Source: Candidatus Heimdallarchaeota archaeon B3_Heim
GTDB lineage: Archaea > Asgardarchaeota > Heimdallarchaeia > Hodarchaeales > Hodarchaeaceae
DNA length: 32,000 bases
Assembly: GCA_003144275.1 (NCBI GenBank)
Contig: NJBF01000040.1
Coordinates: forward strand, 1 to 32,000
Direction of reading: 5' to 3'
Part shown: positions 1,938 to 22,288 of the stretch, piece by piece
Numbering within the stretch: position 1 is the stretch's first letter
Layout of the letters: the number at the start of each line of letters is the position of its first letter
The notes under the pieces: model-generated
Databases searched by the model: none
Seen by the model: the letters and a program-made list of their open reading frames with translations, nothing else
What the model was told of the DNA's origin: nothing
Made by a program: the position numbers and the translations under genes

Positions 1938-1953
1938 ACTTTACCAAAACTAC

Positions 1954-1968
1954 TCTTTTCTTTTTTCC
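1954..1968 (+). terminator. Oligo-T archaeal-type terminator candidate
   Basis: TCTTTTCTTTTTTCC about 17 nt after the stop at 1937. Confidence 0.4.
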
Positions 1969-2182
1969 AAAATTTTTCAAGTTACTGTAGAATTTTGACT
2001 CCACATACGTTAACATTGAATGAGATATCCTTTCAATACGTGTACTTAAAGGAAATTTTGAAGGGGTCGGTAGATTACTTTTACTTTAGTATACTGAAAG
2101 ATTAAAAAGAACAATATATGAATTGTGTTTGATTGCTTCTGATCTATTAGTAGGTTGGATTAAAACGGGTTAGGAGTAGTAA

Positions 2183-3232
2183 ATGGTGAAAAAATCTTTT
2201 CATAATTTTTTGGAACAGATCCAAAACACACAAAGACAGGCTATAGAGCAAGTTGAAAGGGTACAGTCTGATAGACTTCAAGATTTTGATTATCAAGAAG
2301 ATCCTCCAAAAATGATTGCGATCGACGGCTCGAATCGCTGGATCTGGAATAATCCCGACATTAATGCACGTATTGCAATTATTCGTACCGCTTATGTTGT
2401 TTATGAGTTTAATAGCGACTTTTCCCCTCCTATGCAGATTCTTAATCAAGGTTCTCAAGATGAAGCGGTTCTGATTGCACCTGATAACCCCAACATTCAT
2501 ACTTATGATCAAGATTTCCAGAAATTGCATACTGAAATACAGAGAATAATTGGTCGCAAAAATCCATTAGGGGAAACCCTCTCTTTGCTTCGTTCACTTG
2601 CTGAATTCAAAATGGTGGAGGAATTGGCTAGTAATTATACGGAATCACTGATTGTGATGGATGGCGCTTTGACTTATGTACAGATAAAAGAATTTGAAGA
2701 CACCATTAGGAATATTGTCAAGGCCTGCAAGAAAAATAACAATATTTTGATTGGAGTATCAAAAAGGAATATTACACGGTGGCTTGGATCCGAACTAACT
2801 GATGAAGCAGTTATGAGAGAAATTGCCCGAAATGACCAAAAAATGATGTATATGGATATTCCAACGATACCCAAATCCCAACAGAAATTCCCATCTATTG
2901 GTAAGACTTATCTAGCGAAATTGCATGCAAAACCTGTTAAAACCTTTAGAGTGGATATTTATAACCCTTTAAATGTAAATGATAATAAAGTTCTGTCACA
3001 TCTAGCATACTACTCACAGGTGAACACATTTCCTGGATATCCATTTCCCTTAGTAGATGCACATACTATTGCAGCCCTTTTAAGGCGTGTTCCGGATATG
3101 TATAATCACGAATTACTAGAAGTCGGCATTCAACTTGGTTTCACAGAAGATGAATTACTCCAATACATGATAACACATGAAAATATGGAAACTGATCCAT
3201 TCCACAGATATTTAGACGATGCAACAAGATAA
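2183..3232 (+). CDS. nurA: NurA 5'-3' nuclease
   Basis: Motifs IAIDGS, LAE, LIVMDGAL, IGVSK and C-terminal GYPFPLVDAH; AGGAG upstream of the ATG; directly upstream of herA. Confidence 0.9.
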   Translation: MVKKSFHNFLEQIQNTQRQAIEQVERVQSDRLQDFDYQEDPPKMIAIDGSNRWIWNNPDINARIAIIRTAYVVYEFNSDFSPPMQILNQGSQDEAVLIAPDNPNIHTYDQDFQKLHTEIQRIIGRKNPLGETLSLLRSLAEFKMVEELASNYTESLIVMDGALTYVQIKEFEDTIRNIVKACKKNNNILIGVSKRNITRWLGSELTDEAVMREIARNDQKMMYMDIPTIPKSQQKFPSIGKTYLAKLHAKPVKTFRVDIYNPLNVNDNKVLSHLAYYSQVNTFPGYPFPLVDAHTIAALLRRVPDMYNHELLEVGIQLGFTEDELLQYMITHENMETDPFHRYLDDATR

Positions 3233-3259
3233 CATTCATTAAAATAAGAGGACAAAAAT

Positions 3260-4846
3260 ATGAAGAAAGATATTGAAGAAAAGATAGCTCTAGGTGAAGT
3301 TATTTCGGGTGCTGTAAGTGGTGCAATCCAATTAAAGCTCAGGACCGATAGTGAGGAAGTGAAAATAGGATTTCCTGCAGTCATTGAGGGGAAAAAATAT
3401 GATTTCTTTTCCATTATTTCTGATATTCAATTCCCAACAAGTAATGCGGTCACTATGTTAGCAAATGCAGAAAAACTGCGAAATACGATACCCTTGAATA
3501 CCATCGACACTTCTAGGGGACGTACATTTTATAGTATTGCTGAGCTCCAGTGTGTTCAAATGATTGAGCAGACATCTGGCAAAGCTTTTGAATTTGAGAC
3601 CCTTCCCCCTTATTTTTCATCAGGTCGATTAGCGAGTAAATCTGATGTGCAACGGGTATATCAAACAGACCTCCCTGAAAATACTCAATCAGTTGGAACC
3701 CTCAGAGGGGTAGAAGGATTTGAAATTCCAATTGATTTCAAAAAACTCGTAGAGGTACCGTTTGGGATTTTTGGTCGAACACACTCGGGAAAAACTTTTC
3801 TCAATAAGATAATCCTTGGAAATATTATTAAAACTGAGGTATCGCAGATTCTGGTTTTTGATATGCAATCCGAATATGGGTGGCGATCCCGCGCTGATAA
3901 TTCCCCTGGTCTGAAGTTTTTCTTTGAAGATCAAGTCACTCTATTAAGTCTTGACCCGAGCACAAGTAAAAGCCACGATGAGGATTTATTGATAGGAGAA
4001 AACGAAATAGAACCTGAGGATTTAATCGTAGCTTTCCAAGATCTTTCACCTACAATGATTGATGCAATTTATGAGATAAATCGAACGAAACCCTCATCAC
4101 AAACTCTTATGGAAGGAATTCATGCAGCACTGATAGCCGACCCCCCTCCTCAACGCATTAATCGTGGAACTTTGAACGCTTTGAGTAGACGTATCATGAG
4201 ATTAGATCGCTTATCTTTTGTAGTGAAATCCGATAAGGGAAATTTGAATAACATACTAAAATATATACAATCAGGCCAGAATATTGTAATCGACTTTGGG
4301 AAGTTTGGAGCGGATTTCTTCGCGTATGTGTTTGTGGCAAACATAATTTCTCGTCGATTATATAAAAGCTATAGTGAAATGGTCGATATGAGTGATTATC
4401 CTAGACTAGTTGTCCTTCTTGAAGAGGCTCATAAGTTTTTAGACCCCAGAATCTCGAAAAATACCATTTTTGATAGGCTTGCACGAGAAATGCGTAAATT
4501 TAATCTAGTATTGGCAATGGTCGATCAGCGACCTTCGAGAATTGACCCTGAGATATTATCACAACTCGCAAATCGATTCATTCTTTCCTTAACAGATCCT
4601 AAAGATACCATTAATGCTTTAACGGGCCCTGTTGATCCGGCGGCATGGCGAGCAATTGTACGTGCTATGCCTCCTCGTACTGTATTAATGTTTGGTGACG
4701 CAATCCGCGCACCGACGGCCATGGATGTTCTGGAGTATAATGAAAGCACAATGACTCAAAAATGGCAAATTAGCAGTACGTCCCAGGAGTTACGTGATAC
4801 TCTTGATTCCCTATCGGATGATGATAAAAGAAACATGTTCAAGTGA
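3260..4846 (+). CDS. herA: HerA (FtsK/HerA superfamily) DNA translocase/helicase
   Basis: N-terminal HAS-barrel-like region, Walker A GRTHSGKT, FDMQSEYG, Walker B VVLLEEAHKF, AREMRKF and DQRPS motifs; GAGG RBS. Confidence 0.93.
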   Translation: MKKDIEEKIALGEVISGAVSGAIQLKLRTDSEEVKIGFPAVIEGKKYDFFSIISDIQFPTSNAVTMLANAEKLRNTIPLNTIDTSRGRTFYSIAELQCVQMIEQTSGKAFEFETLPPYFSSGRLASKSDVQRVYQTDLPENTQSVGTLRGVEGFEIPIDFKKLVEVPFGIFGRTHSGKTFLNKIILGNIIKTEVSQILVFDMQSEYGWRSRADNSPGLKFFFEDQVTLLSLDPSTSKSHDEDLLIGENEIEPEDLIVAFQDLSPTMIDAIYEINRTKPSSQTLMEGIHAALIADPPPQRINRGTLNALSRRIMRLDRLSFVVKSDKGNLNNILKYIQSGQNIVIDFGKFGADFFAYVFVANIISRRLYKSYSEMVDMSDYPRLVVLLEEAHKFLDPRISKNTIFDRLAREMRKFNLVLAMVDQRPSRIDPEILSQLANRFILSLTDPKDTINALTGPVDPAAWRAIVRAMPPRTVLMFGDAIRAPTAMDVLEYNESTMTQKWQISSTSQELRDTLDSLSDDDKRNMFK

Positions 4847-4880
4847 TTAATCCTTATTTTTAATTCGAGATTTGATTAGA

Positions 4881-6104
4881 ATGGCAAAAATCGTCATAGT
4901 GGGAGATGTCCATATTGGAAAGCGATATGCATATCGTGTCAATTTGAAAACAGGCATTAGCGACCGTACTTTAGATTTTATTAATGCTCTTTCTAGAGTA
5001 GTTGCTTATGCAATCAATAATAAGGCCGATATATTTATCATTGCAGGGGATCTGTACGATCGCGTCACAGTCGGTCCAACACTTCTTCGACAAGTTAGAG
5101 AAACAATTTGGCAGCCTCTTATTGAAGCAAAAATTCCGATAGTTTGTATTGGGGGAAATCATGACTCACCACAAATATTTGAGAAAGGATCACCATTGGG
5201 AGAAATTTCTCTTTTTCCGAATAGTATTGTAGCACGATCTCCACAAACCGCTATAGTACACACTATGACTACAAAGGAAGAAATTGGTTTTCTTCTCCTA
5301 CCATATCTAACGGCATCCCAAGTTGTGAAGTTTGTAGAAGAACGTCTTGGTAAATCTGTCGAGAAGGAAAGACAGATGGTTTTAAGTCAAGAATATCTTA
5401 AATACTTTATAGAAAATGAATTAAAACAACTTCCCACTAAGACAAATCTTCTTGTTGGTCATTACTTCTTTCAAGGATCCAAAATTAATATTATTCCATA
5501 CCCAGATCATCTTCCTCATGAATTCAAATTTAAGAAAGATATGCTACCATTAGATAAAATTGACTTAGCAATATTCGGTCATATTCATACCACTCAAACT
5601 TTACATGGTGGAAAAGTTTTAGTTCCTGGATCATTGGAACGAGTAGATTTTGGTGAGGTGAACGAGGATAAAGGATTTTATGTATTCGAAACTACAACAG
5701 GAAAGCTAGAATTTATTACAAATAATCCTCGTTCGTTAGTTAAACAGTTTATTGAAGTACCAAGGGTAGAGGATCCTACAAATTACATAATTCAAAATTT
5801 ACCAAGAACATTAGAAGAGTCTATTGTCCGTATAATTATAAAAATATCCCCCGAATTAAAGAAGAAAGTACGTCTGCCACGTATTCATCAAGCGTTAGAT
5901 TCAACATTTCATTTTGAATTGTTCTGGGATACTTCTATAACTCAACGTGAAATAGTTCTCACTGATTTTGTTCTAGATCCATTAGTCTTATTTAATGACT
6001 TTATTACGAGAAAACTTGATCAAGACCCCAATTTGGAACAATTACGTCAAAAAGGATTAGAAATTCTTGATCGAGCACTCGCTCAGGTGGAAGAAAAGCT
6101 ATGA
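4881..6104 (+). CDS. mre11: Mre11/SbcD metallophosphoesterase nuclease
   Basis: Phosphoesterase motifs GDVHIG, GDLYD, GNHD, GHY and GHIH, plus PGSLERVDFGE. ATG at 4881 preferred over the TTG at 4872. Confidence 0.93.
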   Translation: MAKIVIVGDVHIGKRYAYRVNLKTGISDRTLDFINALSRVVAYAINNKADIFIIAGDLYDRVTVGPTLLRQVRETIWQPLIEAKIPIVCIGGNHDSPQIFEKGSPLGEISLFPNSIVARSPQTAIVHTMTTKEEIGFLLLPYLTASQVVKFVEERLGKSVEKERQMVLSQEYLKYFIENELKQLPTKTNLLVGHYFFQGSKINIIPYPDHLPHEFKFKKDMLPLDKIDLAIFGHIHTTQTLHGGKVLVPGSLERVDFGEVNEDKGFYVFETTTGKLEFITNNPRSLVKQFIEVPRVEDPTNYIIQNLPRTLEESIVRIIIKISPELKKKVRLPRIHQALDSTFHFELFWDTSITQREIVLTDFVLDPLVLFNDFITRKLDQDPNLEQLRQKGLEILDRALAQVEEKL

Positions 6105-8476
6105 GCGATACAGCCCATCACTCTTTCGGGGGAGGTTTTGATCTAATTTCTCTAGAAATATATCGCTTCATGAATTATCTGGGGAAACCAGTTAAATTTG
6201 CTTTCAATGCTCCCAATATCGTCATCTCTGGTCCAACCGGTTCAGGAAAAACAACAATTTTAGATGCCCTAACATTTGCTCTATTCGGTAGAAGCTCCCG
6301 ATTGGATCTAACTATTGTTAAAACAGAAGATATATGTGGGAATAATGGAAGAGTAACTTGTGAATTCCATATAGACAAAATCTATTACAAAATTATCCGT
6401 GGGAGGGACAGTAAGGGCAAAAGCTTTTTAGAACTGTTTATCAACAATGAACGGATTAATGGGAAAATTCCTGAGTTAAATGAGAAAATTCGGTCTACCA
6501 TCCTTGGAATGAATTATGCTGCTTTTGTAAATTCGACTATCATTCGCCAAGATGAAATGAAATCACTGGGATCTAAATCCTCAACAGAACGATTAAAAAC
6601 ATTACAAAACCTATTTCGACTGGATATTTTTAATAAAGCTATACAAGACACTCAAGAACAACTAATGACAATAAATGGCTTGAAAAATAAAGTAGAGGGT
6701 GAATTGCAAACAAATAAGAAGAATTTTTCCTCTAAAATACTTTTAGAAAAGAAAGTAAATCAATTAGTTCCTCAATTACAGAAATTGAAGAGTGAGGAAA
6801 AGAAGTCATTCAAGATAATCGGTGAAAAGGAACTAGAGAAGAATGAGAAACAAGAATTACATGAAAAATTCCAAATCACTTTAGATAGTATGAAAAACTC
6901 TGAAAAACAACTTATGAAGCTTGAAAATTCAGAGAGGAAATCAGAAGAAGAATTAAAAAAATATATGAAATTAAAAAATAATTCTATGGTTTTAGAGAAG
7001 CAAATTGAAGTAATTCGTAATCATGATGAGGAAATAAGATCTCTTGAAAGCAAGAAAAAAGAGTATACATTTATAAAATCTGGGATAGAAAAATTGATCC
7101 AGAGACGAAGGAAAGATGAATTACGACTCATAAAAGATACAGAAAAGAAGAATAATCTGAAAGCAGAAACAGTAAAGCGAATTGCGAACCTTACGACCGA
7201 TATCGATCATAAAAAGGCTTTTCAAATCTTGCAACAGGAGGGAAGATTAGGGGAACGAATTCAAAGAATTTCTCTTGAAAAATCATGGAAATTACCCGAT
7301 AAACTCATTCAGGAATTACTACAGGAACAATTAAACGCAAGATCTGATCTCAAAGAGTTATTAACGGAGAAAACAAAGATCAATATCGACTCTTTTAGAT
7401 TATCTGAAATCCAAGACACGGAAAACCAGTTAATAGCGGAAATCGAGAAATTAAATGAACGATTAAGCGAGTTAAAGGAATCTTCAGAGAAGGAAATCCA
7501 AGAGGAGAAAAACAAGCAAAAGAAGATTGGATTTTCTCCAGAAATACAGAAACATCTTGATATGTTGAAAAACTCACAAATTACTAATGAAAAGATAAAA
7601 AAAGAGTATACTACAGCAAAACATAACTTTGAGTCAATAATTGATCCTACAAGCAAAATAAATACTCTACAAAATCAAATCAAAGTGATTAAAGAGGAGA
7701 GAGTAAGATTTCGAGAGGAACTTAAAGATTATCGACAATTTCAAAAGGAGTTTGAATTTCTTAAAACTGACTTGAAAGAAAAAAAAGAAAGTGTCGAAAA
7801 ATTACAGATCCAATGTGTTCGTATGGATCAGGATATTAAGAACCTGCAATTTAATATTCTAGAACTTCAAAAATTAAAGCCAGAAATTAAAAAACTTGAG
7901 AAAAAGTTGGACAAGTTTATTCAGGAAGAAAACGTTTTAATTAAACTGAAGAATGAGGTGTTTCATATAAGGGGCGCTCCTTTCTATGCAATTAACAAGA
8001 TACTACCTCATCTTGGTAAGCGTGCTTCCCTAATTTTGTCAGATTTAACAAGCCGAAAATTAACTAGTGTTCAATTAGAAAGAATTGATAAAGGAAAACA
8101 AGGTTTGGGATTCAACATTAACATCCAAACTCCTCAAGGACCTCGGGATATTTCAACCTTTTCTGGTGGTGAACGTACTCAAATTAATGCGGCATTAAGA
8201 TTAGCGATCAGTGAAGAACTTTCCTATTTTGGTGGAGAAAGAGCTCAAGAATCAGGAACAAAGAAGACACTATTTATTGATGAGGGAGATTTGGGATCCC
8301 TTGATACTATGGAAGCTCAACAAGCATTCGTCAAGAAGCTCTTTGAATTAAGTAATAAATTTAAGATCATATTAATAACCCACATCACAGAAATTGCGGA
8401 TCAATTTCCACATTCCATTCAGATTACACGTGATACTTACGGGAGATCTATGAAAAATGCTGCGAGTGATACTTAG
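6101..8476 (+). CDS. rad50: Rad50/SbcC SMC-like ATPase without a CXXC zinc hook
   Basis: Walker A GPTGSGKT, Q-loop IIRQDE, ~450-aa coiled coil, signature FSGGE, Walker B LFIDE, D-loop SLD, H-loop ITH; ATGA overlap with the mre11 stop. Confidence 0.93.
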   Translation: MSDTAHHSFGGGFDLISLEIYRFMNYLGKPVKFAFNAPNIVISGPTGSGKTTILDALTFALFGRSSRLDLTIVKTEDICGNNGRVTCEFHIDKIYYKIIRGRDSKGKSFLELFINNERINGKIPELNEKIRSTILGMNYAAFVNSTIIRQDEMKSLGSKSSTERLKTLQNLFRLDIFNKAIQDTQEQLMTINGLKNKVEGELQTNKKNFSSKILLEKKVNQLVPQLQKLKSEEKKSFKIIGEKELEKNEKQELHEKFQITLDSMKNSEKQLMKLENSERKSEEELKKYMKLKNNSMVLEKQIEVIRNHDEEIRSLESKKKEYTFIKSGIEKLIQRRRKDELRLIKDTEKKNNLKAETVKRIANLTTDIDHKKAFQILQQEGRLGERIQRISLEKSWKLPDKLIQELLQEQLNARSDLKELLTEKTKINIDSFRLSEIQDTENQLIAEIEKLNERLSELKESSEKEIQEEKNKQKKIGFSPEIQKHLDMLKNSQITNEKIKKEYTTAKHNFESIIDPTSKINTLQNQIKVIKEERVRFREELKDYRQFQKEFEFLKTDLKEKKESVEKLQIQCVRMDQDIKNLQFNILELQKLKPEIKKLEKKLDKFIQEENVLIKLKNEVFHIRGAPFYAINKILPHLGKRASLILSDLTSRKLTSVQLERIDKGKQGLGFNINIQTPQGPRDISTFSGGERTQINAALRLAISEELSYFGGERAQESGTKKTLFIDEGDLGSLDTMEAQQAFVKKLFELSNKFKIILITHITEIADQFPHSIQITRDTYGRSMKNAASDT

Positions 8477-10740
8477 TGATCTCTGAATTCATTAAGAAAA
8501 TCAAGAATACATCTTATTATAAAGACCAAATTATATTCCAAAGGAGTATTCCTGAGAAAGACCCCCAATTTGGATCGCTTGCCTTCCAATTAGCTCCAGA
8601 ACTTGAGCAATGGCTGCGAGAGAACGAATGGAAGCTTTATTCTCACCAAGCCGATGCCCTGAATATTATAAATAAAGGAAAAAATGTTGTTGTAACCACT
8701 TCAACAGCATCGGGTAAAACATTAATTTTTTCATTGGCGGTAGCTCAAGCAATCACTCAAAGAGAAAATTCAACAGCATTATTCTTATATCCTATGAAAG
8801 CCCTAGCTAATGATCAGCTCAGTAAAATGGAAGAACTGAACGCAGTGTTGGAGGGGAGACTGCGACCTTTTATTTATGATGGAGACACACCATCCGAAAG
8901 ACGACCAGCGATTCGAAATACGGCCCGGGTTATTATCTCAAATCCATATGCCTTCCATCGCTATTTAGACTGGCATTCAAAGTGGGAACGATTTTTTCGA
9001 AATCTAAGATTTATAGTTATTGATGAGGCACATACCTACCGAGGAGTGTTTGGTTCAAATGTAGCACAACTTATTCGGAGATTACAACGGATCTGTGAAT
9101 TTTATCGTTCCCAACCACAATTTATTCTCTCTTCAGCTACAATAAACAATCCAAGAGAATTTGCTGAGAAGCTTATTGGTACTCCTCTTCATATCATCAC
9201 GAACGATGGTTCTCAGCAAGGTTCAAAGGAATTAGTTATATGGAACCCTCCCTTTGTCGATCAGTTTAATTCAAAACGAAGATCACCACATCAAGAGACA
9301 CGTGATTTACTTTTTAGCCATTTAAGTGAACATTATCAGACGCTTTGCTTCACCCTTTCAAGAAAAATGTCGGAAATCATTGCAGTCTGGGCGCGTCAAG
9401 ATCTCGAGAAGCACGAATTAGATCCTGAACAAGTAATGGCTTATCGAGCAGGGTATCGTCCCCTAGAACGAAGGAGAATTGAGAGCCAATTAAGGAATCG
9501 GGAAATATCTGCAGTCGTTAGCACAAATGCTCTTGAAGTAGGTATTGATATTGGCAATCTAGATGCAGTGCTTCTAAGTGGATTCCCAGGTACAATAATT
9601 TCAACTTGGCAACAAATCGGACGTGTCGGTAGAACTACTCGTCCTTCTCTTGCCACTCTAATTCTCTTTGAAGACGCTTATCAGCAGTTCTTAGGGCGTC
9701 ATCCAGAATATTTCCTAGAGAAGACCCCTGAGAATGCTATAATTGATTTAAACAATCCATATATCGTAAAAGGACACATTTTGTGTGCAGCTTCAGAACT
9801 ACCTATTAAAAAAGCTGAAATCAGCAAAATATGGGGAGAAGTTGGGATGAAAGTTATCAAAGAGTTATTAAATCAGGATGTACTAAAACTAGTTCCTGCA
9901 GGTATAGTTCCCAAGTCAATTAAGCATCCTTCACAACAAGTCAGTTTAAATTCAGCATTTACAGAGTCTATTGAGATTATAGTGAGTGAAAAGTTGTTAG
10001 AAACGATGACAACGGCCCAAGCATATCGTGAAGCGCATGAGGGAGCGATTTTAATCCATCAAGGGGAGAAATATCTTATTGAGACTATTGATTGGGAGAA
10101 TAAGAAGGCTTATGCATCTCCCCATCGGGTTGATTATTATACAGAAGCCATTTCTATAAGTGATGTAGAAATTATTGCCCAAGAAAACGAAAAGGATATT
10201 GGGTACTTATTGACCTTTGGTGAAGTTAAAGTAACTGAGTTCTATCATTCCTACAGAAAAAAAACATACGATGAAGTGCTTGAAATAGTACCATTCGACC
10301 TTCCCCCACTGGAATTTAATACGAAAGCTGTGTGGATTAATCTTCCTTCATCTATAGTAACTAAAGTAAAAGCGGAGAAGAAAGATTTTTCTGGGGGAAT
10401 TCATGCATTAGAGCATGCAACGATCGCTTTATCTCCCTTATTTGCTCTTTGTGATCGCTGGGATATCGGAGGCACGTCTTACCCTAATTTTCCAGATGAT
10501 GGAACAGCTAAAATCTTTATTTACGATGGATTCCCGGGGGGCATTGGAATTGCAGAACAATTATTCGAAAAGTGGGAAGTCCTCTTATCAAATGTGCTAC
10601 AGCTAATCCAAGAATGTCCTTGTAGTGAGGGATGTCCTTCTTGCATTCAATCGCCTAAATGTGGTAATGATAACTTTCCTCTAAGTAAAGAAGTGGCAAT
10701 TGACCTTTTGAAAGAATTAAAATTGCTTTCAAAGAACTGA
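8476..10740 (+). CDS. SF2 DEAH-box helicase with C-terminal DUF1998 (MrfA/YprA/SftH/Hrq1 family)
   Basis: TSTASGKT, YPMKAL, DEAH, SAT, YRAGY, TNALEVGIDIG, QQIGRVGR, HALEH, IYDGFPGGIG and the Zn-binding CPCSEGCPSC..SPKC. The GTG start shares one base with the rad50 stop (TAGTG). Confidence 0.93.
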   Translation: MISEFIKKIKNTSYYKDQIIFQRSIPEKDPQFGSLAFQLAPELEQWLRENEWKLYSHQADALNIINKGKNVVVTTSTASGKTLIFSLAVAQAITQRENSTALFLYPMKALANDQLSKMEELNAVLEGRLRPFIYDGDTPSERRPAIRNTARVIISNPYAFHRYLDWHSKWERFFRNLRFIVIDEAHTYRGVFGSNVAQLIRRLQRICEFYRSQPQFILSSATINNPREFAEKLIGTPLHIITNDGSQQGSKELVIWNPPFVDQFNSKRRSPHQETRDLLFSHLSEHYQTLCFTLSRKMSEIIAVWARQDLEKHELDPEQVMAYRAGYRPLERRRIESQLRNREISAVVSTNALEVGIDIGNLDAVLLSGFPGTIISTWQQIGRVGRTTRPSLATLILFEDAYQQFLGRHPEYFLEKTPENAIIDLNNPYIVKGHILCAASELPIKKAEISKIWGEVGMKVIKELLNQDVLKLVPAGIVPKSIKHPSQQVSLNSAFTESIEIIVSEKLLETMTTAQAYREAHEGAILIHQGEKYLIETIDWENKKAYASPHRVDYYTEAISISDVEIIAQENEKDIGYLLTFGEVKVTEFYHSYRKKTYDEVLEIVPFDLPPLEFNTKAVWINLPSSIVTKVKAEKKDFSGGIHALEHATIALSPLFALCDRWDIGGTSYPNFPDDGTAKIFIYDGFPGGIGIAEQLFEKWEVLLSNVLQLIQECPCSEGCPSCIQSPKCGNDNFPLSKEVAIDLLKELKLLSKN

Positions 10741-11068: not shown

Positions 11069-14000
11069 TTATGAGTTGAATGTTTTTCCACAACTACTAC
11101 AAAACTTTGCTTCTAGAGGCATTCGAACGCCACATTGGACACAATATTTGTGCAATGGAATCTGGGGTTTTGGGGTGATTTCTAGGGATTGCTTACGTTG
11201 ATAAGAGTACGAATAGGGGTCATATCGTTTCCGTTCATTTCGACGAATAAAGTATATAATTGCAATCGTAACTCCCAGCGCAAATACGACTGCGAGAATG
11301 AGAAGGGGAATATCAATGAAGCTAGGATTTGATATTTGAAAGAAGATTGGTTCGAGAATTGAATTCCCTTGAGCGTCACGAACATAGAAAAGAAGAAGAA
11401 AATATTCCCCCTGAATCTTTACTTCTAGATCTTCCTCATCTGGTAAAGGTATAGGGAGATCAGGTACAGTAAATATACCTGTATGCACGCTACTATCTAA
11501 AGAGGATGGATTAAGAGTAAAACTGTCAAAAACAATTCGATCAGCGGCAAAGAGGTAATAATGGATAAGCTGGTAATAAACTTCAAATTTTACTGAGTTT
11601 TCATCGTATAAGCTAAGCGAAATCTCTATCTCTTCTGCAGGTTTCCATTTAGGGACATCTTGAAAAGTTAAGATTTGCAGATAATCATCAACAGTACGAT
11701 CCCCAATAAAGCTCTGAGACCCTAGAATTACTGGTTCTTCGTCAGGAACATAAAAATAGTCACGATCTGTTTTTATTAACATCGGTTGTTTTTGCTCATT
11801 TTCCCACCATACTTGGATTTCATAAGTGTAATATCCTGGATGCAATCCTCCTGGAACTAACCAACTCGTCAATTTTAAGGTCGAATTATAATTGTAAAAT
11901 TTCTCTTCAATCATGTAACTACTAGAGAAAATCTCTGAATCCAATGGAGGAATTATAACGTCCAGTGAATCTTCATATTGGCTGGAGATGATAAGAATTG
12001 CTGAAATATTGGAACTTGAGGTATGCGTTACGGCCACGTCTAACCCCCTATCAAGAAGAAGATCATCTGAATTATCCCACCAAGAGGGAGTAGGTATTTC
12101 AAGAGACGTTATAGGGTGGACTTCAATTTCTTCAACAGTCGGAATTTGAGAAGTAGAGAGAGGTACATCTGACGTAACATTTAATGTTCCGAGAATAACA
12201 TCCCCCACAAGGTTTATTCTCACATGTGTTCCATCAACACCAGCTAACGAAAAGTCAAGATAGGCAAAAGTAAGTGTACCATTATATGGGACATTAATAT
12301 CATTGATTTGTGATCCATTTTCGAGTTCGATTGTAAGTGAGAAATTCTGTTCTAAAGATGGGTAAATGGCAACCTCCATTGCCAAAGAATCTGGAGCTAC
12401 TTGAACATTGAATGTGGTATGATTTGGAGATAACCAATCCAAAACATTGGACAGAAAGATCTGTCCTGAGGTACTTCGGAGATAAGATGAATAAATCCAC
12501 TCTTCACTGCCTAAAAGAAGCACCTTTCCCTTCCCCTCTGGCTCCAAACCTGCCAGTACAAGTTGGGTGTCGACTTGAGCATAATGCGCTAGTGACTGGT
12601 CAGTTTTATTTCCGTAAAAAGCAGTTCCCCCCAATCTTGGAAGATTTTCTACTCCAACAAAGAATGGATTGTCACTACTTATATCTAAATCATCTTTTGA
12701 TAGAAAATATGGTACTGGAATTCTATCTTGTCCATCATCGATGTATTCAACTAGCTCTGTTCTATCAGAAAGGTTGAGAGGTAGATTCAAGGCACTAATC
12801 AATTTTTCATATGGATCGAGAGTGTAATATGGAAGGAAAGATGTTACTAATAGAATTGAACCATTATTTTTGTGAAAATCGATAATACAGTCAATTTCAC
12901 GATAAGTAAGGGGATCTTCAAGATCGGTTAGGACTAAGATTCCATTTTGGGTGAGATTTGAGCTTAGTATTGGGGAATTATAGTCAATTATATCATATCG
13001 AGAACTTTGGAATAGTTGATTCAAGTAGTGATAATTATAGAAATATGAATCATCTTTTCCAGTATGGTACGTATCCCAATAAATTTTCTCATCAGGTAAT
13101 TGTACCTCAAATGCTATGGGTAATTCAAAGGTCTGATCTTCAAAAGAATAACGAATAAACCCTTGATAGGAGTCTGGGGGAGCATTAAAGGGAATATCGA
13201 TAGCAAGAACCTTTTCAAAATAAGTGGCAGAAGATATAATCGTAGGAGAGAGATCAAAATCGATAAATGGAATTAGATCATTACTTACTTCCCATGTAAT
13301 TGTTCCACCCGTTCCAGTTACAAAGGGCAGAGTAATTTCAACGTGATCACCAGGAAATGAAACTGGTTGAAAAAACTCTATTTCATTCCCGTTTGCTTCT
13401 GGTACTGTGGAAATTAGCTCATAACCTGAACTTAGTTTCGAATTTTTTAACATGTCAGCTGCCATCCCTACATTTACCAGTCCACTTCCTTGGGTGTAAA
13501 TAGATTCACTACCCCCTAGATCTGAGGCTGATTCCTGTAAGGCTGCACGTATGGCATAAGGAGAAGCATCTGGAAACTGATCCAAAAGCAATGCTACTGC
13601 TCCACTTACAACTGGTGCTGCCATCGATGTCCCTGACAATACAATATAATCAGAAAGGTAAACATCCACTAATGCATTATAAGCCAAGTCAATTACCCCT
13701 CCTGATGCAAGAGGGCCAATGATTTGGTATCCTGGAGCCACAATATCTGGATCTGGTCGAAAATCATAGGTAGGTCCTTGACTGGAAAAAGAAACGACAT
13801 TTTGACTCCCATTTGTCGCACCTACTGTTAACGCTTTTTTTGCAGAAGCAGGTGTATTAATTGTCATGAAAGGAATAGAACCATCTGCTTCATTCCCTGC
13901 AGCCGTTACAACAGTAATACCATGACCCACAACAGAATTTACTGCAAGAGCTAGAATATCCTCTGACTCCCAAGGAGCAGTAAGTCCAAATCCTAAAGAA

Positions 14001-14782
14001 ATTGAGATTATATCAACATTTAATTCAACAGCCCTATCTAAAGCGGCAATTACTGCAGAGCTGGAGGCACTCCCAAACATATCAGCCACTTTGAGATTTA
14101 CTAACTCAGAACCAGTAGCTACTCCTGGGAAAGGCCCTCCACCCGCTGCAATCCCCGCAACATGAGTACCATGCCCATGTAGATCAGAAATGTCCTCTTC
14201 AGAAGAATATCCATAATCTGATGTTACAAATGATTCTTGATATCCGACGTTGACAAAATCTGAGTGTGAAGTATCTAATCCCGAATCTAGTATAGCTATT
14301 TTTACACCCGAGCCATCATATCCAGAAATTGTTAATGGAGATGCATTAATAATATCACTAGGGAGTTCATAATCCTGTTGTATATCTTGAATATACTTCG
14401 GGGTTAGTTCCTCTAATGAAGGTAATACTGTCATCAGTTTTGAGGATTGTACACGAGAGAATATTTGTCCAAAATCATTTTTCAGTATAGATAGATCATT
14501 TTGTGATAAAGAAACCTTACCAATATGTAAATTTTCAAAGAATTTTAGAGAGGAATTACCATTCTGCTCAAAATGTTCTTTTAAAAGCTCCTTTTCTTCT
14601 GGGTGGTATGTAAATAAATAAACAGAAGTACTCTCGATATTTGAAGACATATTAACAGAGTTATCCGTTGATATTTGGAGCGTTTCCCCTCCTAAAGCGA
14701 CCTTCGGAATCGGGAGGATCATTAAAAGAATTAAAACTATTTTACTTGCAAGATAAAAGGTTCTATGTTTTGCTAGATTCAA
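11069..14782 (-). CDS. Membrane-anchored S8 subtilase, 1237 aa: signal peptide, propeptide, S8 domain, Ig-like domain, GATase/IFT52(GIFT)-like domain, C-terminal TM helix and zinc ribbon
   Basis: Catalytic triad ILDSG / HGHGTHVAG / SGTSMAAP, oxyanion AAGN; N-terminal hydrophobic stretch; TM IPLLILAVVFALGVTIAIIYFI followed by RRNERKR; terminal CVQC...CSSC; TTG start preceded by GAGG. Confidence 0.92.
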   Translation of the reverse strand: MNLAKHRTFYLASKIVLILLMILPIPKVALGGETLQISTDNSVNMSSNIESTSVYLFTYHPEEKELLKEHFEQNGNSSLKFFENLHIGKVSLSQNDLSILKNDFGQIFSRVQSSKLMTVLPSLEELTPKYIQDIQQDYELPSDIINASPLTISGYDGSGVKIAILDSGLDTSHSDFVNVGYQESFVTSDYGYSSEEDISDLHGHGTHVAGIAAGGGPFPGVATGSELVNLKVADMFGSASSSAVIAALDRAVELNVDIISISLGFGLTAPWESEDILALAVNSVVGHGITVVTAAGNEADGSIPFMTINTPASAKKALTVGATNGSQNVVSFSSQGPTYDFRPDPDIVAPGYQIIGPLASGGVIDLAYNALVDVYLSDYIVLSGTSMAAPVVSGAVALLLDQFPDASPYAIRAALQESASDLGGSESIYTQGSGLVNVGMAADMLKNSKLSSGYELISTVPEANGNEIEFFQPVSFPGDHVEITLPFVTGTGGTITWEVSNDLIPFIDFDLSPTIISSATYFEKVLAIDIPFNAPPDSYQGFIRYSFEDQTFELPIAFEVQLPDEKIYWDTYHTGKDDSYFYNYHYLNQLFQSSRYDIIDYNSPILSSNLTQNGILVLTDLEDPLTYREIDCIIDFHKNNGSILLVTSFLPYYTLDPYEKLISALNLPLNLSDRTELVEYIDDGQDRIPVPYFLSKDDLDISSDNPFFVGVENLPRLGGTAFYGNKTDQSLAHYAQVDTQLVLAGLEPEGKGKVLLLGSEEWIYSSYLRSTSGQIFLSNVLDWLSPNHTTFNVQVAPDSLAMEVAIYPSLEQNFSLTIELENGSQINDINVPYNGTLTFAYLDFSLAGVDGTHVRINLVGDVILGTLNVTSDVPLSTSQIPTVEEIEVHPITSLEIPTPSWWDNSDDLLLDRGLDVAVTHTSSSNISAILIISSQYEDSLDVIIPPLDSEIFSSSYMIEEKFYNYNSTLKLTSWLVPGGLHPGYYTYEIQVWWENEQKQPMLIKTDRDYFYVPDEEPVILGSQSFIGDRTVDDYLQILTFQDVPKWKPAEEIEISLSLYDENSVKFEVYYQLIHYYLFAADRIVFDSFTLNPSSLDSSVHTGIFTVPDLPIPLPDEEDLEVKIQGEYFLLLFYVRDAQGNSILEPIFFQISNPSFIDIPLLILAVVFALGVTIAIIYFIRRNERKRYDPYSYSYQRKQSLEITPKPQIPLHKYCVQCGVRMPLEAKFCSSCGKTFNS

Positions 14783-19975: not shown

Positions 19976-22288
19976 GTGGCTGAAATATTTGATGCAATCA
20001 TCCTTGGCAAAGTAAATCCTTTCCGGAGTACCTCAATTGGGGATCCTTGGCAGACGGATGTAATTGATGTACCTGAGTACAACGAGAAAGCAACACGTAT
20101 CGTACTGGAAACTCTAGATGAAGTACGTTCCACAGGACGATCAGGTATGTGCATGATCTTAGGGGATGCTGGAGTAGGTAAAACACATGTTCTAGCGCGT
20201 TTACGTCGCATTGCTGAAGAAAATAAGTACTTATTTGTGAGTGTACGCCCTCTTGGTGACCTAACCAGAATTTACGGCCATATTCTCCAAGAATTGATGA
20301 TATCTCTCAGAAAAAAGGATGAGGAGGATCAATACAGCCCATTAGAACATTTTATTGGTGATGTTATTTCACGGGCATTAAGCGATGGTCTGCCAGATAA
20401 CCCTTCAGCGCAACATCTAGCCTCCAGCTTTGACCAAAATCCGATGAAAATCTTTTCTTATAAGCCTGAACGATTCTATTCATCAAATCTGAGGAAAATG
20501 GCTATCAATTATCTCGCTTCTTCCGCTCCCGACATCGATATACAATTTTTAGAAGTTCTGTTCCATGTTCTGAACCCCACCATGCGTGCTACAGCTTTCA
20601 AGTGGTTATCTGGGATAGAAATTTCCCAAAAAGATTTGGATAGATTAGAAGTTCCTCATTCGATTAATTCCGAGAATCGAGCATTATCGATCATTCAAAC
20701 AATAGCCTCACTCGCTCAAAGACCTATCTTACTTTCATTTGACCAATTAGAGTCAATATATATTCGTTTTAAGCGTGATAATGGCATTCAACTTTTATTT
20801 GATTCATTAACTAATCTATATAACCAATGTCGGCATCTTCTCGTTCTTGCTATGTGTCAATCACTTGTTTGGAATGAATCCATCACCAAAGAAGTTCCAG
20901 AATATGCCCGTCAGCGTATTGACTATATCACACGTCTAGAACGGTTGTCACACAAAAATGCGGTGGCTTTAGTTAAAGCACGTTTTGATACCATGTTTTT
21001 AGATTCGGGAGTTATCCCTCCGTACGCTACTTACCCCTTTAAAGATGATTTTATTGCTAAAACCGCTGATAAAACCGATGGAAATCCACGATTGTTCCTT
21101 CGACATTTAAGGGATCGAATAAACGAATTTAAAGATCAAGGAGAAATCCGAGAACTTACAGTGGTAGATATTACAACAGAAGTTCAAAAGGAAGCTGTTG
21201 CTGGGGTTCCCCCTATGACTCCGGATGAGGTTGTTTCGGCAGCTTCTTCGTCGCTTTCTCAAGATAGCGTAAATGCTTTACAATCCTTATCTGAAGTAGA
21301 GAAAGAAGCTCTTACCGGATTATTCACTGAACCAGATATGATGTCGGTCGAACCAGCTCCACTAGCCACAAGAGCTGAAGAAGCATTAGAAGTTTTAGAT
21401 GATTTGGCCCCAGTGATGCCTTCTTCATCAACACCAACTGAAATAATTTCTTTTCTCGAATCAAAATGGGCAAAATATGCCCAAGAATTTGAAATGGAAA
21501 TATTTGCTTTTCCCCATCCAGTTCGCCGAGATTTCTGCAAGGGAGTTCTTTATGAAATCTTAAACGCAGCCATCGAGAAAAAGCGTCCGATTTATGGAAT
21601 CAATCTACTGAACGTGCGCATCGATCGGAATCTTGTTGAGAAAGATACCAAAGGATTGGACCTTGTATTTACATATCAAACTCCTCGTGGGCCAACTTCA
21701 GTGGGCATTGAAATAAATAACAGTGAACACGGCTCCACAGTATTTCAGAGTCTTCGTCGGTTAAAAAAATTAGTAAAGGGTAATATTCGGTATGCCTTTA
21801 TTCTCAGAGATGAAGAATTGTCTCTACAAAGGACCGCTACAAAATCTTTGGATCTCGCTGAATCTTTAACCGATTATGGCGGTCTCTATTACATAGATTT
21901 TCTATCAAATCAAGCTTTACTCGCTACGAAGAAATTACTTGATCTAGCGTCTGCTGGCGATTTAGTTTTAGGATCACAGACTGTAAGTAGAAATCAAGCA
22001 TTATCATTTATCTTTGAGGAATGTTTAAGTCGAATAACAATTTTTCAAACAGTATTCTCTCATTTACAATCTTCTCAGGAACCCGGTGTTCGAAGAACGG
22101 GTTACACGTCCGAATCATCTGAAGCAGTTGAAGCAATTGTCACCATTCTGAAATTTAATCCTAGGATGACAACTGATCGTTTATGTATGCTTCTCAATCG
22201 TAATGAGCAAGAATTAAACCCGATTCTAAAAATGCTTGCCATCCGCGGTTTGATTTCATTCGATGGCAAAAATATTAATTTGCTTTAA
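19976..22288 (+). CDS. AAA+ (Cdc6/ORC/STAND-like) ATPase with acidic linker, restriction-endonuclease-like domain and C-terminal winged helix
   Basis: Walker A GDAGVGKT, Walker B LLSFDQLE, ARQRI, GNPR; ~95-aa acidic/Ser/Pro linker; 'LDLVF...VGIEINN' segment; terminal 50 aa with wHTH pattern. Confidence 0.75.
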   Translation: MAEIFDAIILGKVNPFRSTSIGDPWQTDVIDVPEYNEKATRIVLETLDEVRSTGRSGMCMILGDAGVGKTHVLARLRRIAEENKYLFVSVRPLGDLTRIYGHILQELMISLRKKDEEDQYSPLEHFIGDVISRALSDGLPDNPSAQHLASSFDQNPMKIFSYKPERFYSSNLRKMAINYLASSAPDIDIQFLEVLFHVLNPTMRATAFKWLSGIEISQKDLDRLEVPHSINSENRALSIIQTIASLAQRPILLSFDQLESIYIRFKRDNGIQLLFDSLTNLYNQCRHLLVLAMCQSLVWNESITKEVPEYARQRIDYITRLERLSHKNAVALVKARFDTMFLDSGVIPPYATYPFKDDFIAKTADKTDGNPRLFLRHLRDRINEFKDQGEIRELTVVDITTEVQKEAVAGVPPMTPDEVVSAASSSLSQDSVNALQSLSEVEKEALTGLFTEPDMMSVEPAPLATRAEEALEVLDDLAPVMPSSSTPTEIISFLESKWAKYAQEFEMEIFAFPHPVRRDFCKGVLYEILNAAIEKKRPIYGINLLNVRIDRNLVEKDTKGLDLVFTYQTPRGPTSVGIEINNSEHGSTVFQSLRRLKKLVKGNIRYAFILRDEELSLQRTATKSLDLAESLTDYGGLYYIDFLSNQALLATKKLLDLASAGDLVLGSQTVSRNQALSFIFEECLSRITIFQTVFSHLQSSQEPGVRRTGYTSESSEAVEAIVTILKFNPRMTTDRLCMLLNRNEQELNPILKMLAIRGLISFDGKNINLL

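Follow-up and report, generated by a model that had tools for sequence, protein, structure and literature searches.

The Asgard archaeon Candidatus Heimdallarchaeota B3_Heim carries a gene for a DNA repair helicase that overlaps the end of a resection operon: does its product work with the nucleases encoded upstream, or does it only share their transcript? The stretch of DNA considered here, called the window below, is the first 32,000 nucleotides (nt) of contig NJBF01000040.1 (assembly GCA_003144275.1; 3.95 Mb, 94% complete). It includes genes for NurA, HerA, Mre11, and Rad50, followed by one for a YprA/MrfA/Hrq1-type helicase. A reading made from the sequence alone (the sequence-only reading) proposed that these form an undescribed system, either for crosslink and adduct repair or for destroying foreign DNA ends, and that a Rad50 without a zinc hook supports a specialised role. 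Comparisons were made with a panel of 400 Asgard genomes in 85 genera, with a sample of 22 genomes for the genus concerned (Hodarchaeum-type Asgard archaea, placed by their submitters in the Hodarchaeales/Heimdallarchaeia). They bear out a real and conserved five-gene unit, but not the defence role, the reading of the hookless Rad50 as a specialisation, or the idea of a new system: “undescribed system” overstates what appears to be a genus-level fusion, of single origin, of two known repair modules.

A literature search found no published link between MrfA/DUF1998 helicases and Rad50, Mre11, HerA, or NurA. For the repair branch of the YprA family, the contexts given in the survey of Bell et al. 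are “YprA only” and MrfB-linked only (PMC12458937), and a 2026 review describes the Asgard NurA, HerA, and Mre11-Rad50 proteins as uncharacterised (PMC13748450). Taken together, the results point to the pairing of two DNA-repair modules in one operon as the new element, the modules themselves being known. Beyond Bacillus subtilis, little is understood of what MrfA/YprA/Hrq1-type repair helicases do in the cell and with which partners; the arrangement is an Asgard extension of the archaeal resection operon, and offers a defined five-gene set for biochemistry.

The five-gene unit and its conservation

The layout is as the sequence-only reading had it, by inspection of the open reading frames (ORFs) and their junctions: five co-oriented genes (Table 1), with gaps of 27 nt between nurA and herA and 34 nt between herA and mre11, a 4 nt ATGA overlap between mre11 and rad50 (6101-6104), and the sequence TAGTG at 8474-8478, in which the GTG start of the helicase gene shares 1 nt with the TAG stop of rad50. 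The start of mre11 is taken as the ATG at 4881; an in-frame TTG upstream, at 4872, was judged less likely. Within the unit, only the region upstream of nurA is of promoter size; it has a Shine-Dalgarno-like motif, GGAG, 8 nt ahead of the nurA ATG. A scan for bacterial-type promoters and terminators, a type of scan unsuited to archaea, gave fewer matches than shuffled sequence, or no more. The ORF upstream (936-1937, 333 amino acids [aa]) matches no family, and other genomes of the genus show no synteny for it, so nurA is taken as the 5′ boundary of the unit. On the other side, the S8 subtilase gene is outside the module but keeps its syntenic place beyond the helicase gene in most loci of the genus, marking a conserved 3′ boundary.

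Table 1. Features of the window from the region upstream of nurA to the convergent subtilase gene.
Feature	Position	Strand	Description
Intergenic region 5′ of nurA	1938-2182	.	245 nt, AT-rich
nurA	2183-3232	+	349 aa; NurA-domain nuclease, first gene of operon; PF09376, E 6.4e-14
herA	3260-4846	+	528 aa; HerA/FtsK-type ATPase; DUF87 (PF01935), E 2.3e-19
mre11	4881-6104	+	407 aa; calcineurin-like phosphoesterase nuclease; Metallophos, E 6e-15; SbcD-like TIGR00619, 76 bits
rad50	6101-8476	+	791 aa; ABC-ATPase head and coiled coil, no Zn hook; AAA_23/SMC_N
Rad50 apex region	7190-7411	+	Residues 364-437, at the position where a CxxC hook would be
YprA/MrfA/Hrq1-type SF2 helicase	8476-10740	+	754 aa; GTG start; DEAD, Helicase_C, WHD_HRQ1, and MZB
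S8 subtilase	11069-14782	-	1237 aa; C-terminal zinc ribbon/double-zinc-ribbon tail; Peptidase_S8, E 7e-55; convergent to helicase

The adjacency is not restricted to the B3_Heim genome. The order nurA-herA-mre11-rad50-helicase is kept in every genome of the genus with a sufficient contig, some 19 species; in the survey of resection loci described below, it was not found outside the genus. Across these species mre11 and rad50 always overlap (spacing -4 or -1 nt), and the spacing from rad50 to the helicase gene ranges from -4 to +21 nt. This tight spacing persists though identity drops to 64% for the helicase and to 43-45% for Rad50. Judged from the short gaps and overlaps kept across the genus, the five genes are probably a single transcription unit. 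The operon and the helicase are both present in 19 of the genus genomes and both missing from three: two have no Mre11-Rad50 (G010, 87% complete, and G006, 71% complete), and the third (G012) has a canonical Mre11-Rad50 instead. In one single-contig assembly (CP070760, 70% complete), rad50 is split between two sites, with the part encoding residues 1-188 next to nurA-herA-mre11 at ~240 kb and that for residues ~257-789 next to the helicase gene at ~759 kb; the split is to be explained by a misassembly or else by an inversion through rad50.

All five enzymes look active, from their intact catalytic and ATPase motifs. NurA keeps its D48/D160-type residues without exception across the genus, among orthologs that are 47-81% identical and occupy the same position. 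HerA (identity 70-92%) has an invariant Walker A (GRTHSGKT) and Walker B (LLEEAH). Mre11 has all of phosphoesterase motifs I-V (GDVH, GDLYD, GGNHD, GH194, and GHIH234-236), invariant in 11 orthologs from the genus. The head motifs of Rad50 are likewise present (GPTGSGKT, FSGGE, LFIDEG, and ITH, covering Walker A and B, signature, and H-loop), and a profile of its family matches the Methanocaldococcus jannaschii Rad50 head structures with an E value of 2e-41.

Helicase ancestry and the missing MrfB

The description of the fifth gene product as a DUF1998 (MrfA/Hrq1-type) helicase coupled to rad50 is borne out by its MZB domain and by matches to TIGR03817 (723 bits) and to B. subtilis YprA/MrfA (PDB 6znp; 494 bits, E 9.6e-147, residues 53-726). 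It has the YprA/MrfA architecture, RecA1-RecA2-WH-OB/CON-MZB with a Zn-binding Cys cluster: the DEAH box is at residues 183-186, the MZB/DUF1998 domain is encoded at 10408-10647, and the cluster at residues 714-729 consists of cysteines 714, 716, 720, 723, and 729. No other MZB gene was found in the genome. The exact helicase sequence, looked up among recorded contigs, had no match. There is also a family-level likeness to the eukaryotic Hrq1/RECQL4-type proteins, in the same broad family of 3′-5′ repair helicases: a WHD_HRQ1 domain is present, and identity to plant and algal Hrq1-like proteins is 36% over 96-99% of the length. The eukaryotic proteins, however, are about twice as long and not operonic, and a specific orthology with the Hodarchaeal helicase is not implied.

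Helicases with an MZB domain are common in Asgard archaea (337 of the 400 genomes). In a maximum likelihood tree of 49 of them, those of the genus form a single clade (support 100), sister to helicases from the same order (91); the two together are sister (98) to a clade containing helicases with an adjacent MrfB. The genus helicase therefore seems to descend vertically from an MrfB-partnered lineage, and the tree fits vertical inheritance plus a single relocation.

The partner is still in place elsewhere. In six other Asgard lineages (L059, L079, L080, L081, L087, and L095), a gene for an MrfB/YprB-like 3′-5′ DEDDh exonuclease of 360-446 aa (PF13482, RNase_H_2; E 1e-23 to 5e-40) lies directly 5′ of the orthologous helicase gene, usually overlapping it. 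A search profile built from these six proteins matches 148 of the 400 Asgard genomes, including one from the same order (G023) and one from the same class (G035), and none of the 22 from the genus. In the B3_Heim genome, PF13482 matches were found only inside two family-B DNA polymerases. The sequence-only reading had noted that no MrfB-like gene adjoins the operon; this proved correct, and extends to the rest of the assembly. Loss of MrfB thus coincides exactly with the clade carrying the fusion. Set beside MrfAB (YprAB), the pair that repairs mitomycin C damage in B. subtilis, the helicase corresponds to MrfA over its full length, including the DEAH, WH, and four-Cys MZB elements, and its sister-lineage Asgard orthologs are still coupled to a PF13482 exonuclease, but in this genus rad50 and mre11 are the upstream coupled genes instead.

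A Rad50 family without a zinc hook

The Rad50 of the window has only three cysteines (79, 87, and 572), none in a CxxC motif, and no match to the zinc-hook domain PF04423. The sequence-only reading was right about the missing hook, but not about its meaning: CxxC is absent from all 74 full-length members of this Rad50 family. Within the Asgard panel, a profile made from the genus proteins finds the family in 30 genomes, from 9 of the 85 genera. Outside it, the family is the sole Rad50 in three complete euryarchaeal chromosomes (Thermoplasmata and Methanomassiliicoccales), and to lack a hook is therefore the usual condition of a housekeeping Mre11-Rad50 in those lineages, and no sign of specialisation. 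A literature search found no description of a hookless Rad50 family.

In place of the hook there is a conserved apex motif. The consensus for residues 364-437 is TDIDH..AF.IL.QEGRL.ERIQRISLE ... IN.DSF.LSEI, with A373, G381, E385, I427, and E436 invariant in 44 family members from several phyla. In an AlphaFold2 model of the window Rad50 (mean predicted local distance difference test score [pLDDT] 82), the two long antiparallel arms (helices 176-362 and 430-620) are capped, at the coiled-coil tip, by a pair of short helices (370-393 and 400-424). Prediction with two copies of residues 320-480 gives a symmetric homodimer through the conserved apex residues, with a score of 0.62, against 0.01 for the best of three controls; contacts are shared between the runs to 100%, with a partner pLDDT of 86. 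Of 30 proteins whose structures were solved as pairs of one chain, 20 reach the mark used for this score, as does 1 of 23 solved as single chains. The prediction supports a zinc-independent Rad50 apex dimer. As a side result, this is a phylum-spanning hookless family with a conserved apex motif predicted to dimerise, and in some lineages it is the only Rad50.

Operons built around this family vary in layout. A Rad50-anchored scan of one genome per GTDB species gave 80 loci, 19 from the genus and 61 others, the latter from Thermoplasmata, Methanomassiliicoccales, Methanocellales, Hydrothermarchaeota, Bathyarchaeota (Bathyarchaeia), and one bin labelled Aminicenantes; scattered Asgard lineages have hookless operons too. 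Those outside the genus share the Rad50 family (29-36% identity over the full length) and apex motif, with related Mre11, NurA, and HerA families, but their order is mre11-rad50-nurA-herA in several euryarchaeal and other lineages. In some other Asgard genomes, nurA-herA is instead followed by a single fused mre11::rad50 ORF of ~1190-1217 aa (L146:8560-12135(-), L147:1282-4851(+), L148:6743-10393(+), and L150:8345-11908(-)). In a tree of HerA, the genus forms its own clade and other Asgard members are scattered among Euryarchaeota.

The better known archaeal resection operon of Sulfolobus, Pyrococcus, and Thermococcus has the same four families with intact motifs, is operonic, and has overlapping mre11 and rad50. 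It differs in order (herA-mre11-rad50-nurA, against nurA-herA-mre11-rad50 here) and in its Rad50, which has a CxxC zinc hook where the one described here has the helical apex motif; the coupled fifth gene, for a YprA/MrfA helicase, is a further difference. Hooked Rad50s do occur in other families of the same class: those encoded in canonical nurA-herA-mre11-rad50 operons have CPKC or CPTC, and a 720-aa form has CELC. One such family (G028, and G038 at C1:468000-482000) has this 720-aa CELC Rad50 paired with a different Mre11, and in G028 the pair is found as two tandem copies (C1:399304-408061).

Possible functions and neighbouring genes

Any function proposed for the operon has to take account of what else is available in the cell. 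It holds the only Mre11-Rad50 in the B3_Heim genome, and the only complete end-processing set. A second, canonical resection operon, which the sequence-only reading had raised as a possibility, was looked for there and not found. Most members of the genus, and of the class generally, carry a separate NurA2-HerA2 pair; the B3_Heim genome appears to have lost it, as NurA2 was not found and HerA2 is a C-terminal remnant of ~70 aa (C88:30190-30398), 78% identical to the ortholog in G020. The operon is thus not simply the sole, vertically inherited resection locus, given the second NurA-HerA pair in most of the genus.

The explanation that the evidence somewhat favors is that this is a lineage-specific repair operon, in which the part of MrfB passed to Mre11-Rad50 and/or NurA-HerA; co-function, contacts, substrates, and nuclease partner are all inferred. 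On this explanation the lineage's own MrfA/YprA-type 3′-5′ helicase would have been appended 3′ of nurA-herA-mre11-rad50 and translationally coupled to it, and MrfB would have been lost in the genus, leaving rad50 and mre11 directly upstream of the helicase gene. At a lesion, gap, or blocked end, the helicase would load on the single-stranded DNA and move along it 3′-5′. The displaced 3′ strand or flap could then be passed to Mre11-Rad50, as 3′-5′ exonuclease and endonuclease, and/or the helicase could open ends for NurA-HerA. In this way Mre11-Rad50 and NurA might substitute for MrfB in repair of adducts, crosslinks, or blocked ends, besides break resection. Mre11 has the same 3′-5′ exonuclease polarity as MrfB, plus an endonuclease activity. 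For B. subtilis, two-hybrid assays show binding of MrfA to MrfB, and the model proposed there is that the helicase offers a free 3′ end to the 3′-5′ exonuclease MrfB (PMC11194089). The loss of MrfB, together with a helicase tied to Mre11-Rad50 and NurA-HerA, thus provides a testable hypothesis as to which nuclease the helicase feeds.

A more ambitious version, unlikely as a whole, would make the MrfA/Hrq1-type helicase a working subunit of Mre11-Rad50/NurA-HerA, with MrfB swapped for Mre11-Rad50, and would add that in this large archaeal Rad50 family DNA is tethered by a helical apex dimer that needs no zinc, and not by the supposedly universal zinc hook. If true, a prokaryotic Mre11-Rad50 would be teamed with a 3′-5′ SF2 repair helicase, in functional parallel to eukaryotic MRN/MRX with a RecQ-family helicase or Hrq1.

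Several results count against a functional union of helicase and resection operon, and lead into the alternatives. None of the 61 loci outside the genus that encode this Rad50 family has an MZB helicase adjoining the operon, which leaves the arrangement with no verified independent recurrence; nor was NurA, HerA, Mre11, or Rad50 found near the helicase at any of ~36 Asgard helicase loci from other families and classes. From these two absences the arrangement arose once, in one genus, and its conservation may partly reflect shared ancestry and not selection for co-function. The flanks are not syntenic with those of the sister family, so that in-place displacement of mrfB is not supported by synteny. 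Longer homologs of the helicase show no fusion to Rad50, Mre11, NurA, or HerA domains; the fusions that are present are to DnaJ, PLD-like, and NERD domains. The main rival explanation, favored by the single origin, is that a rearrangement simply put the helicase gene in the operon, to hitch-hike there while the co-transcribed products act in separate pathways, adduct repair for one and break resection for the others. Many repair-branch YprA helicases across prokaryotes do without a conserved context (the “YprA only” class; PMC12458937), and most Asgard genomes with both MrfA and MrfB have them on different contigs or at different loci. Hitch-hiking is nonetheless judged rather unlikely, if worth serious consideration: overlap or a spacing of no more than 21 nt has been kept between species whose Rad50s are ~45% identical, MrfB disappears in just the clade that has the fusion, and within the genus helicase and operon are present or absent together.

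The helicase could conceivably also be a long-range 3′-5′ resection motor in the manner of Sgs1/BLM-Dna2 or RecQ-RecJ, working chiefly with the 5′-3′ nuclease NurA, without replacement of MrfB by Mre11. NurA-HerA is encoded in the operon, the second NurA-HerA pair kept by other members of the genus is gone from B3_Heim, and in two other lineages a different 3′-5′ SF2 repair helicase, Hel308, is encoded within 2-5 kb of resection genes. In characterised systems, though, HerA is already the translocase of NurA, and it is rad50, not nurA, to which the helicase gene is coupled; such a role is considered improbable. A defence function, in which a YprA-family helicase like those of DISARM, Druantia, Dpd, and ARMADA would guide Mre11-Rad50/NurA-HerA to destroy invading DNA ends, is very improbable. 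The helicase does share an SF2 core and DUF1998/MZB module with these systems (DISARM DrmA/B, Druantia DruE), PADLOC gives partial matches to DruE, HerA, and LmuB models, and the distribution is somewhat patchy, with this Rad50 type in 9 of 85 Asgard genera and the operon missing from three of the 22 genus genomes. The helicase matches to defence models, however, cover only the helicase core (150 bits to the 1776-position DruE model; 68 bits to DrmA), and the fit to repair-type MrfA is far better (723 and 494 bits); by the definition of Bell et al. (PMC12458937) it falls in the repair branch. It is compact, with no domains detected beyond the standard DEAD, Helicase_C, WHD, and MZB, the insert domains of the defence clades (PMC12458937) not having been looked for. 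The window includes no methyltransferase, DrmB/C, Dru, Brx/Pgl, or Dpd-cluster partner genes, its neighbouring genes are of housekeeping type with the S8 protease flank syntenic across the genus, the same Rad50 family does housekeeping service in complete euryarchaeal chromosomes, and the operon carries the genome's sole Mre11-Rad50. With a repair-branch helicase, no defence partners, and a syntenic housekeeping neighbourhood, the suggestion that the operon destroys foreign DNA ends is unsupported.

Some other candidates were set aside in these searches. A second NurA-domain ORF in the B3_Heim genome (C35) is an orphan partial domain and not a second resection set, and a 956-aa ORF (C32) has only a weak metallophosphatase match. 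An 838-aa SMC protein on C4 (L012:7704-11807) with a hook-like CPTC motif was rejected as a Rad50, being LmuB-like: Lamassu LmuB gives the top match (107 bits), the protein has an extra C-terminal domain, and its gene is followed by one for a 525-aa AAA ATPase. The two are a possible Lamassu-type defence pair rather than a repair Rad50. A helicase-like ORF near the operon of a Thermoplasmata chromosome (L212) proved to be Hel308 and not an MZB helicase.

This last is one of the two cases of Hel308/Hjm-type helicases mentioned above as 2-5 kb away from resection genes: it lies near the Mre11-Rad50 operon (L212:1021-3153(+)), and the other is near NurA2-HerA2 in an Asgard archaeon of the same class (L139:13571-15856(-)). 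The linkage is loose, and could be either meaningful or fortuitous. The rest of the window is made up of housekeeping genes, among them those for a RIO kinase, aminotransferases, a GHMP kinase, and glutamine synthetase; a gene at 19976-22288 (+) encodes a 770-aa protein whose only matches are to AAA_16/AAA_22 (STAND-like NTPase).

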